DNA of 64,000 nt from Candidatus Nomurabacteria bacterium (lineage in GTDB: Bacteria; Patescibacteriota; Saccharimonadia; Saccharimonadales; Saccharimonadaceae). Below are positions 60,101-60,678 of the stretch, piece by piece; positions within the stretch are counted from its first letter, which is position 1; every line of letters starts with the position of its first letter. The DNA is taken from positions 10,254 to 74,253 of the forward strand of contig JAISOF010000024.1 in NCBI GenBank assembly GCA_031275815.1, given 5' to 3'. Below the pieces are notes generated by a model. The model was not told the DNA's origin. It saw nothing but the letters and a program-made list of their open reading frames with translations, and searched no databases. The position numbers were made by a program, and so were the translations under genes.

Positions 60101-60483
60101 GTCGCCACGTTCCCCGCTGTGTCAATTGACGATCCCGTCCCGCAGCCATTGATGGCATTGACAGTGGAAGCGTCCCACGTACTCAATTGATTAATCGTCG
60201 CCGTCACTGTCACCGTGCCACTGGTGGTGAAATTATAATTTGCCGTCCATTTCACCGTGTTGTTGGTCAGGACGTGTGTGGCGTCTTCGCCGATTTGCCC
60301 AGTGCCAACCTGTGTATCAGTCGCCGACACCAAACTTGCCACACCAGTATCCGCGGCCATCGCCTTCGGCAACGACCGGCGCCCCATCACAAACATCAGC
60401 CCGCCCACCAACAAAACCGCCGAAAAAACCACCAGCAATTTCGGAAAAATACGCTTATGTCCAAACGTCATAGCCGGTTTCAT
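57154..60483 (-). CDS. Large surface protein (Ig-fold/DUF11-like repeats, SdrD-B/Cna-B-type domain) with a Sec signal peptide and the shared C-terminal module
   Basis: The ATG at 60483 has an AGGAA SD 8 nt upstream. The signal peptide is MKPAMTFGHKRIFPKLLVVFSAVLLVGGLMFVMGRRSLPKAMA|AD. The Cna-B-like segment is VSGAVYKDVNGSGVFDGGDIGLSGLTVSL...GAYRFSDLSSGTYSV. The track ORF extends in frame to 60657 through the (TC)19 tract. Confidence 0.75.
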   Translation of the reverse strand: MKPAMTFGHKRIFPKLLVVFSAVLLVGGLMFVMGRRSLPKAMAADTGVASLVSATDTQVGTGQIGEDATHVLTNNTVKWTANYNFTTSGTVTVTATINQLSTWDASTVNAINGCGTGSSIDTAGNVATCVMSGNAGEVKPWGLSATVLGANGATVQPTFTDSAGVSPVVPTAVTLVASRAQYDVATYNTYPTRMPATGGDTGLNIGVVFVVKSPLVDGGVLGLEPLTSPMSFTVNTASIPDPSAWTIKGCSAGVSTGNSAIPNYIGSGVSNYYRPGTTSCVKAVDGQSVTITFSDSYTGGTKYPSKSSTGYLLTEAFYADVRLDINVPLASLSTTPANVVLTATPLVATTLSGGPVSSSVIGSQSYALSSKPSFGGDLHVLQATENLSPNVNLPGWINGYANGQPILPSTDIRLNVSLSVTGPTGFVVENPWGCLVMRPNSLELLKEGFFRQAVLQALPSVIEYGVFSNNPPVSTVCGVAGDGAPGWYATLAEAQNAGVVNAVRYKLTGVLDGQQFTSGNSPWFSVDVKSPPNGVVGTALTDGTPIQALWAAGADNIDRVSSSYPARMIATSVVSSNKISVTKSSLLAGETQTVSILPTLTSTVNTTTTVIETVTLSADLAYVSGSARFGGVGVTEPTTTINSDGTTTLVFNLGVLAAGQTNALTFDVNVAPTAVMPTTATITALVDTSSSAALAQTTMRTAAVSFNVAAPPATFAVVQSQSLATIQPGMEQVYTFSHVNTTNSVVTGLTAIDVLPYSGDVNGSTGITGYTVSSLSATGAVTNFYYTTSLAVRNDPTGAVTWVAACVACELPAGVTALKWTTAQMASNTSLQVSFKLTKMTADNGATINNALTVLDSSFTSTITNSALMSAVFKKSSVSGAVYKDVNGSGVFDGGDIGLSGLTVSLVKGDATVATTVTDLNGAYRFSDLSSGTYSVTVATPANMVTNGNTAEDINLLTGVGLSNQNIGFEDLIIALYVSPNPLSLKAASTSGTVSGSIDLTTATNNPLGYRLGLSTADNRLVCLSPSAFINSVTGTGISLADNTWGYKISDETPTSWNEIPMTITNVKSTSAAAKLGDVTKLYFGVKVNLAVPDCDYSGMVMVTAVGNI

Positions 60484-60536
60484 ATCAAGTTCCTGCTTTC
60501 GTCGCGAACCAGCCGGTGCAAAAATCGCAACCAACT

Positions 60537-60574
60537 GAGAGAGAGAGAGAGAGAGAGAGAGAGAGAGAGAGAGA
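60537..60574. repeat. (GA)19 on the top strand, equal to (TC)19 in the sense strand, 54 nt upstream of ATG 60483
   Basis: Counted directly. Confidence 0.95.
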
Positions 60575-60648
60575 CGGCGCACGCAAGCCAACACCGCCCT
60601 GCGCAAATCAAGACTCCTTCGCAACTTACTCTTCCATAACATAATTAG

Positions 60649-60678
60649 ATTATACATAACCAGTTAACTATTTGTCAA
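60649..60678 (-). promoter_or_regulatory. Consensus promoter TTGACA-18-TATAAT, 6 nt upstream of ATG 60642
   Basis: The minus strand reads TTGACAaatagttaactggttatgTATAATctaattATGttatgg. Confidence 0.6.

Follow-up and report, generated by a model that had tools for sequence, protein, structure and literature searches.

A putative slipped-strand switch in the translated 5' end of a surface-protein gene of a Candidatus Nomurabacteria bacterium

This report concerns a 64,000-nucleotide (nt) stretch of DNA from a Candidatus Nomurabacteria bacterium (contig JAISOF010000024.1), referred to below as the window, and, in particular, a perfect run of 19 TC dinucleotides near the start of a gene here named gene A. 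Judged from its sequence, the gene A product is a large secreted surface protein, and the (TC)19 tract is probably a slipped-strand contingency switch located within the translated 5' end of the gene. The reading frame upstream of the main open reading frame (ORF), in which the tract is found, is most likely the 5' coding end of gene A itself, because a second gene of the window, gene B, has the same layout and its tract must be coding. Altogether, four AG/TC tracts are present in the 64-kb window, all of them located at the 5' ends of large genes; genes A, B, and C carry theirs in frame, and that of gene D is one unit off. Three loci in frame together with one that is exactly one unit off are the signature of translational contingency loci.

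Architecture of the gene A locus

All elements of gene A are located on the minus strand, and all coordinates given here are positions in the window. From the preceding gene, cdsA, to the body of gene A, the locus comprises the following features; SD denotes a Shine-Dalgarno sequence.

60741, minus strand: end of cdsA (Pfam CTP_transf_1)
60703-60743, minus strand: intrinsic terminator hairpin with a U-run, 3' of the cdsA stop (-23.5 kcal/mol, z = -4.0 versus shuffles)
60678-60673 and 60654-60649, minus strand: sigma-70-type promoter, TTGACA and TATAAT with an 18-nt spacer, matching the consensus at 12 of 12 positions
60640-60642, minus strand: inferred leaderless start ATG, 6 nt (ctaatt) after the -10 box, with its A at the expected +1 and no SD
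60575-60642, minus strand: leader coding segment MLWKSKLRRSLDLRRAVLACVRR, 23 amino acids with nine K/R and one D, of atypical codon usage
60604-60619, minus strand: second in-frame start candidate, TTG 60606, upstream of the tract, with AAGGAG at 60619-60614 (7-nt spacing)
60537-60574, minus strand: perfect (TC)19, 38 nt, reading (LS)6 in the present phase; putative slipped-strand hotspot
60484-60536, minus strand: linker QLVAIFAPAGSRRKQELD, 18 amino acids, open in all three frames, with an AGGA core at 60494-60491
60480-60487, minus strand: TGAtATGA junction, composed of TGA 60487-60485, ATG 60483-60481, and TGA 60482-60480
60355-60483, minus strand: Sec-type signal peptide counted from ATG 60483, with a basic n-region MKPAMTFGHKRIFPK, a hydrophobic core LLVVFSAVLLVGGLMFVMG, and then RRSLPKAMA/AD (the slash marks the predicted cleavage)
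57154-60642, minus strand: gene A, a 1162-residue precursor (1109 residues from ATG 60483) with an SdrD B-like/prealbumin-fold domain near the C-terminus

The cdsA terminator shields gene A from transcription coming from upstream. When the minus strand was scanned for promoters between 60300 and 60900, a 600-nt region in which 0.3 sites with at least 9 of 12 matches are expected by chance, the 12/12 site upstream of ATG 60642 was the sole promoter-like site; the same scan revealed no further promoter between tract and ORF. Since the tract starts 68 nt past the predicted +1, and so downstream of the -10 box, a transcriptional switch acting through the promoter spacer was discarded for gene A. 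ATG 60657 was also discarded as a start codon for gene A: the frame is already open at this position, but the codon falls within the -10 box. As TTG 60606 is SD-led and ATG 60642 is of the leaderless type, the frame that passes through the tract has two independent initiation signals. The other two frames of gene A likewise contain weak TTG codons ahead of the tract, at 60611 (2 nt after AAGGAG) and at 60586 (no SD), and the frame of the main ORF stays open through the tract in both off phases, including at these two codons. The 5' 203 nt of the gene A mRNA gave no fold signal (z = 0.39), and the 5' region matched no Rfam family, the single weak hit being the cdsA terminator.

At the observed length, the 5' end of gene A reads MLWKSKLRRSLDLRRAVLACVRR(LS)6QLVAIFAPAGSRRKQELD and continues with MKPAMTF at ATG 60483, which corresponds to an extension of 53 codons. 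To read the outcome of length changes, the locus was rebuilt in silico with 17-21 TC units. Among these, only n = 19 falls into the in-frame class, which hence comprises n = 1 mod 3 (16, 19, and 22). In the simulated locus with 18 or 21 units, the upstream frame ends at TGA 60487-60485, 1 nt before ATG 60483, and with 17 or 20 units it ends at TGA 60482-60480, which overlaps this ATG as ATGA. The off-phase frames thus remain open for 17-19 codons and then stop within 1 nt of ATG 60483; recoding the same peptide synonymously places both stops at this codon in 6% of cases, and composition-matched shuffling does so in 0.07-0.4%. The original prediction had described a perfect tract within an open frame, a consensus promoter 6 nt before ATG 60642, fusion of this frame to the MKPAMTF ORF at 19 units with a 53-residue extension ahead of the signal peptide, and termination in the other two phases at a TGA 1 nt before, or overlapping, ATG 60483. 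Each of these elements was recovered in the frame reading, the promoter match, and the simulated unit numbers.

The domain near the C-terminus of gene A corresponds to a Pfam match to SdrD_B (4e-15). In the long form of the precursor, hydropathy reaches its maximum (2.71) at residues 69-83, within a hydrophobic core that spans residues 69-87 and is preceded by 68 residues with 15 K+R and 3 D+E. The AMA/AD cleavage site was assigned by eye according to the AXA rule and not by a prediction tool. The tract forms codons 24-35 of the gene and is separated from the hydrophobic core by 33 residues; in genes of the Helicobacter type, by contrast, the repeat follows within a few codons of the start and supplies part of the hydrophobic core itself, which does not hold for gene A. 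Several sequence features of contingency loci are nevertheless present, as the tract is perfect, its unit is not a multiple of three, and several loci for surface or secreted proteins carry such tracts. Moreover, the tract lies between the start codons and the ORF body, so that a change of one unit truncates the frame; that these starts are used is suggested by the genome-wide pattern of gene starts described below.

Tract-bearing genes B, C, and D

The tracts of the other three genes consist of 22 TC units (gene B), 16 AG units (gene C), and 8 AG units followed by a degenerate tail (gene D), and two of these genes encode a signal peptide.

12592-12748, minus strand (gene 10079-12748): gene B switch, with an extended -10 box TGaTAAAAT, 9 nt, the near-leaderless ATG 12748, a 38-residue basic leader, and (TC)22 at 12592-12635
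49120-49162, plus strand (gene 49120-53064): gene C switch, with a GGAGG SD, ATG 49120, MRLP, and (AG)16
53198-53247, plus strand: gene D switch, with ATG 53198, MRFA, (AG)8, and a degenerate AAAG tract

Gene B is the most informative comparator. Its (TC)22 is in frame with an 889-residue IPT/TIG protein, in which RSQRSHFLNCV and a hydrophobic core follow the tract. Because no ATG, GTG, or TTG is found between the tract and the hydrophobic core, the tract of gene B must be coding, and the long precursor, which carries 61 residues with 11 K+R ahead of the core, is its sole possible form. In the off phases, the frame of gene B stops within 4-8 codons. The basic n-region before the core thus measures 61 residues in gene B, 68 in gene A, and 34 in P0001, a homologue of gene A from another Nomurabacteria genome (see below), from which it follows that long basic n-regions are normal for these proteins. 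The original prediction had taken ATG 60483 to be the main start and had regarded the upstream frame as an ORF of its own; given the shared layout of gene B, its obligatorily coding tract, and the in-frame state of three of the four loci, this part of it is not supported.

In gene C, (AG)16 is in frame with a 1314-residue protein bearing a C-terminal GNAT domain, and the off phases stop within 5-7 codons. Gene D, as assembled, is one unit out of frame with a 947-residue surface protein containing PMP repeats and a Listeria-Bacteroides repeat, and would be ON at n = 9. By eye, the C-terminus of this protein (IPNTG, a hydrophobic segment, and KAKRR) resembles a sortase signal.

The 5' stretches of DNA that extend from the -10 box to the end of the leader in genes A and B (60575-60760 compared with 12637-12830) show a weak but significant similarity, being more alike than random segments of the window (p ~0.004-0.006), and the same applies to the 5' untranslated region (UTR) and ATGCGATTnnCC of genes C and D (48990-49130 compared with 53070-53209; p ~0.009). 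These similarities suggest that the promoter-leader-repeat cassettes of A/B and C/D have been duplicated. Indels in the A/B alignment shift the reading frame, and the sequence of the leader peptide itself therefore seems unconstrained. As a separate observation, all four dinucleotide tracts (12592-12636, 49131-49163, 53210-53247, and 60537-60574) have their purines (AG/GA) on the plus strand regardless of gene orientation, so that the two minus-strand genes show TC and the two plus-strand genes AG, for which the chance is 1 in 8; this may reflect a replication-strand bias of tract stability, or nothing.

Leaderless starts across the window

Two classes of gene starts can be distinguished in the window, namely starts with a strong SD (GGAGG or AGGAG at 4-9 nt), exemplified by pyrG 63427 and the genes at 49120, 39666, and 15341, and starts that have no SD and a -10 box 6-8 nt from the ATG. 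Among ORFs of 150 codons or more, 12 of 60 first ATGs have a TAnnnT box 6-7 nt before the codon, compared with 52 of 1763 other ATGs (odds ratio 8.2, p = 4.6e-7). The leaderless upstream start proposed in the original prediction is well supported by this roughly eightfold enrichment, its transcription start site being a predicted one. ATGs of the leaderless type, which lack an SD and often follow a TG-extended -10 box, are located as follows.

Minus strand, leaderless-type ATGs: 6644, 20187, 28413, 29952, 42684, and 48948
Plus strand, leaderless-type ATGs: 8316, 20426, 25202, 33164, 39853, 42766, and 46658

At 42766, TGTATAAT is followed by 7 nt and ATG, and at 60642 the same TGTATAAT is followed by ctaatt and ATG, a textbook case of this class. 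ATG 60642 fits the genome-wide leaderless pattern because about a fifth of the genes in the window share this arrangement of -10 box and ATG without an SD. From these sequence patterns, about a fifth of the long ORFs seem to be leaderless, which would make leaderless initiation a major start mode in this Nomurabacteria genome. Back-to-back divergent promoters were also observed at 48956-49070, where TTGACA-17-TATAAT on the minus strand (12/12) feeds the leaderless ATG 48948, and its plus-strand partner, TTGACA-17-TATAGT (11/12), feeds gene C.

A study on Actinobacteria and mycobacteria describes leaderless mRNAs as a frequent gene-start type (PMC4633059). The arrangement seen here is alike in having a -10 box approximately 6-7 nt before the ATG and no SD, and it applies to approximately 20% of the long ORFs. 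In a literature search, neither leaderless starts of this kind in Nomurabacteria or in the Candidate Phyla Radiation (CPR) nor the combination of a leaderless start with a simple sequence repeat (SSR) switch were found reported. Leaderless initiation as a major start mode bears on gene calling in CPR genomes.

Proposed mechanism and alternative explanations

According to the proposed mechanism, gene A would be transcribed from the 12/12 consensus promoter, with the cdsA terminator just upstream, and the mRNA would begin at or beside AUG 60642, giving rise to leaderless initiation, with the SD-led UUG 60606 in the same frame as a back-up. Ribosomes would then translate the 23-residue basic leader, the (LS)6 tract, and the 18-residue linker before entering the signal peptide and the body of approximately 1100 residues. 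With 19 units (or 16 or 22), gene A would be ON. Were one TC unit gained or lost during replication, the frame would shift and translation would stop at the TGA beside ATG 60483, so that the main route to the protein would be lost; the gene would be OFF, or strongly reduced in expression if the weakly SD-led ATG 60483 is used at all. The N-terminal extension would form part of a long basic n-region of the signal peptide and would be removed by signal peptidase. Cleavage at the predicted AMA/AD site would give the same mature protein from any of the starts, and the contrast between an extended and a normal protein that had originally been drawn would then disappear.

Several observations weigh against a translational switch of this kind. 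The 53 upstream codons are intermediate in usage rather than coding-like, with scores of -1.4 and -0.35 compared with about +4 expected, and coding-like usage begins only at ATG 60483; on the other side, the obligatory leader of gene B is equally atypical. ATG 60483 itself lies 7 nt downstream of an AGGA, opens a complete signal peptide of normal length, and is positioned exactly at both off-phase stops. Were SD and stops independent, their combination would have a chance of less than 1%, although both features were chosen post hoc; a functional internal start at this codon would make the OFF state leaky. Furthermore, the transcription start site of gene A is a predicted one. Genome-contig and metagenome scans returned no tract-spanning contig from another sample, and length variation of this tract is therefore putative. 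Finally, homology of the leader peptide to the N-terminus of P0001 was considered and rejected: it is suggestive in a MAFFT alignment, but p = 0.12, and the unrelated leader of gene B scores higher.

A possible, albeit rather unlikely, alternative is the graded switch of the original prediction, in which ATG 60483 is a real SD-led start and the tract is a switch with three states. The long precursor would be made at high output at n = 1 mod 3, and in the off phases termination at UGA-n-AUG or AUGA followed by reinitiation, or direct binding of 30S subunits to AGGA, would provide a lower, non-zero output of the same mature protein. The geometry of stop-start coupling is present, namely TGA-t-ATG at n = 18, ATGA at n = 20, and a weak AGGA 7 nt upstream of ATG 60483. 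The rarity with which both off-phase stops coincide with the ATG in recoded and shuffled sequences argues for this view, as do the onset of coding-like codon usage at this codon and the multi-level precedent of Haemophilus influenzae licA, in which two frames contain start codons (PMC2212159). The SD-like signal can be read in both directions: AGGA at 7 nt is within the range of real SDs in the window (genes 4168 and 31626), and no more than 6.6% of internal Met codons in the window follow an AGGA-type core at 4-10 nt, and yet it is a core of only 4 nt, weak beside the GGAGG of SD-led genes. Moreover, no restart site is present at the switches of genes B, C, and D, the off phases of B and C stop within 4-8 codons, and, as gene B shows, this layout normally yields the long precursor. 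The switch implied by a perfect tract of 19 units would also be undone by an efficient internal start, and the features in question were noticed post hoc, with no second example found. It is conceivable, although again rather doubtful on the sequence evidence, that gene A operates as a "volume control" on a leaderless mRNA, with 70S ribosomes from the 5'-terminal AUG either passing through the tract or arriving at a stop-start junction and reinitiating, and with the surface protein never fully off and its level set by tract length. If the graded switch is true, it would represent an SSR coupled to termination-reinitiation, a coupling not described before.

It is less probable still, and in our estimate quite unlikely, that the tract lies in a 5' leader that is untranslated or translated without consequence, ATG 60483 being the sole productive start and tract length being either neutral or effective through properties of the mRNA. 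Possible routes include a pyrimidine-rich ribosome landing site, H-DNA formed by the GA/TC duplex, and mRNA stability. The SD-like core and complete signal peptide at ATG 60483 and the lack of coding-like usage upstream are in line with this explanation, and H. influenzae has SSRs in 5' UTRs whose effect is mediated by RNA elements (PMC12721329). However, an ATG at the predicted +1 of a consensus promoter, a common start mode here, will be translated, and the SD-led in-frame TTG provides a second start upstream of the tract. The frame is also fused at the observed length, as it is at two of the three other loci, and neither an RNA structure signal nor an Rfam match was obtained for the 5' region. 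That the tract or its length is an artefact of assembly or sequencing is very improbable: short-read assemblers perform poorly on low-complexity runs of 38 nt, and the contigs of the Logan assembly described below break at every tract, but two assemblies agree on the flank and on at least 12.5 units, and four tracts at the same position relative to gene starts are unlike artefacts. A slipped-strand translational switch in the gene's own 5' end, for which gene B provides the layout with a tract that must be coding, therefore remains the preferred explanation.

Assembly check and relatives

The Logan assembly SRR14710916 represents the same organism and may or may not derive from the same sample as the Joint Genome Institute (JGI) source assembly. 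One of its contigs (L003) has an identical upstream flank and runs 25 nt, i.e., at least 12.5 units, into the gene A tract before it ends. The tract itself is not an assembly artefact, because this separate assembly has the same flank and enters the TC run; the exact count of 19 could be one allele among several. A further contig of the same organism stops where the gene B tract begins. At gene D (3760-3798 in contig L005), the tract boundary reads G(AG)8 instead of the CC(AG)8 of the window, which is at least half a unit more and gives a hint of length variation rather than a measurement.

The only homologue of gene A, P0001, is a protein from a metagenome-assembled genome (MAG) of Ca. Nomurabacteria with 49% identity and no repeat; its 34-residue basic n-region contains 10 K+R and lies behind a good GAAGG SD. 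A scan of genome contigs for relatives of gene A returned only this MAG. Two metagenome scans, one with the upstream flank of the gene A tract and one with the ATGCGATTnnCC(AG)n cassette common to genes C and D, gave no match, and neither did exact-protein look-ups of gene A from the starts at 60483, 60642, and 60657. The nearest relatives (83-88% identity for PyrG in contigs L006 and L007, and 55% for CdsA in L004) are not syntenic and are without SSRs.

Homopolymers and other repeats in the window

The four AG/TC loci are accompanied by poly-C/G tracts in promoter regions. On the plus strand, a leaderless gene for a membrane protein, with ATG 39853, has a C10 tract (39822-39831, in the region 39815-39855) between TCGACA and its extended -10 box, TGtTAATAT. 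As assembled, this spacer measures 20 nt, and C7 or C8 would give the optimal 17-18 nt; from its sequence, this tract looks like a site of promoter-spacer, i.e., transcriptional, phase variation. G11 and G9 tracts on the gene strand (14794-14837) are located 53-96 nt upstream of the minus-strand ORF 13113-14741, which encodes an OLD/AriA/GajA-like AAA ATPase (PADLOC AriA 2e-23, Old 2e-22). The Logan contig for this gene begins or ends exactly at the edge of the G11 tract, and the gene may, by its tract arrangement, be a phase-variable defence gene. A tandem repeat of a 96-nt unit (30971-31233; 2.7 copies, 82% identity) is found within the minus-strand ORF 30493-31626.

Comparison with known systems

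SSR contingency loci are characteristic of bacteria that have small genomes and are restricted to a host, among them Haemophilus, Neisseria, Helicobacter, Campylobacter, and Mycoplasma; there they randomise surface structures and defence systems under immune or phage pressure. CPR bacteria (Patescibacteria) are thought to live attached to host cells and to have a similarly reduced regulatory capacity. The switch candidates in the window comprise four dinucleotide loci, three of which encode surface or secreted proteins, and homopolymers in the promoter regions of a membrane-protein gene and an OLD/AriA-like ATPase gene, which suggests that this Nomurabacteria population runs a small "phasome". 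Such a phasome gives a handle on surface proteins that are important for host attachment or phage escape. A literature search that combined CPR/Patescibacteria or Saccharibacteria with frame-shifting SSR phase variation found no report; a paper on a CPR "hypervariable repeat" concerns an in-frame 9-mer array (PMC6851277).

Among known systems, dinucleotide and pentamer repeats in surface-protein genes provide the closest comparisons. In Neisseria, the opa genes carry CTCTT pentamer repeats in the region encoding the leader peptide, and in Helicobacter pylori, CT dinucleotide repeats are found in the outer-membrane protein genes hopZ, sabA, and babB, among others. The loci described here resemble opa in that a pyrimidine-rich repeat in the signal-peptide coding region sets ON and OFF through the reading frame and paralogous loci share a 5' cassette; they differ from it in that the opa unit is a pentamer, the opa repeat encodes the hydrophobic core, and the opa mRNA has a leader. 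In licA (lic1) of H. influenzae, CAAT repeats are combined with alpha, beta, and gamma initiation codons, and more than one phase can yield a product (PMC2212159). With its weak TTG codons at 60611 and 60586, gene A likewise has potential start codons in more than one frame, and licA is the nearest precedent for more than two states; the extra starts of licA, however, are upstream of the tract, its unit is a tetranucleotide, and it has not been proposed to involve termination-reinitiation at a downstream start.

In H. pylori oipA, the signal-peptide coding region contains CT repeats through which the gene undergoes slipped-strand ON/OFF switching (PMC10564699). The H. pylori CT-repeat genes and the loci described here have in common a CT/TC tract in the 5' coding region, Leu-Ser repeats, ON/OFF control of a surface protein, and several such genes per genome. 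In H. pylori, the tract has 5-11 units, forms part of the signal peptide, and begins a few codons after an SD-led start, whereas the tracts described here have 16-22 units and occur in a CPR phylum, 23-38 codons into a leaderless ORF and ahead of a distinct hydrophobic core; gene A adds a possible internal restart after the tract. All in all, the mechanism is probably that of H. pylori oipA and Neisseria opa, here operating in a CPR bacterium with a leaderless mRNA and long tracts.

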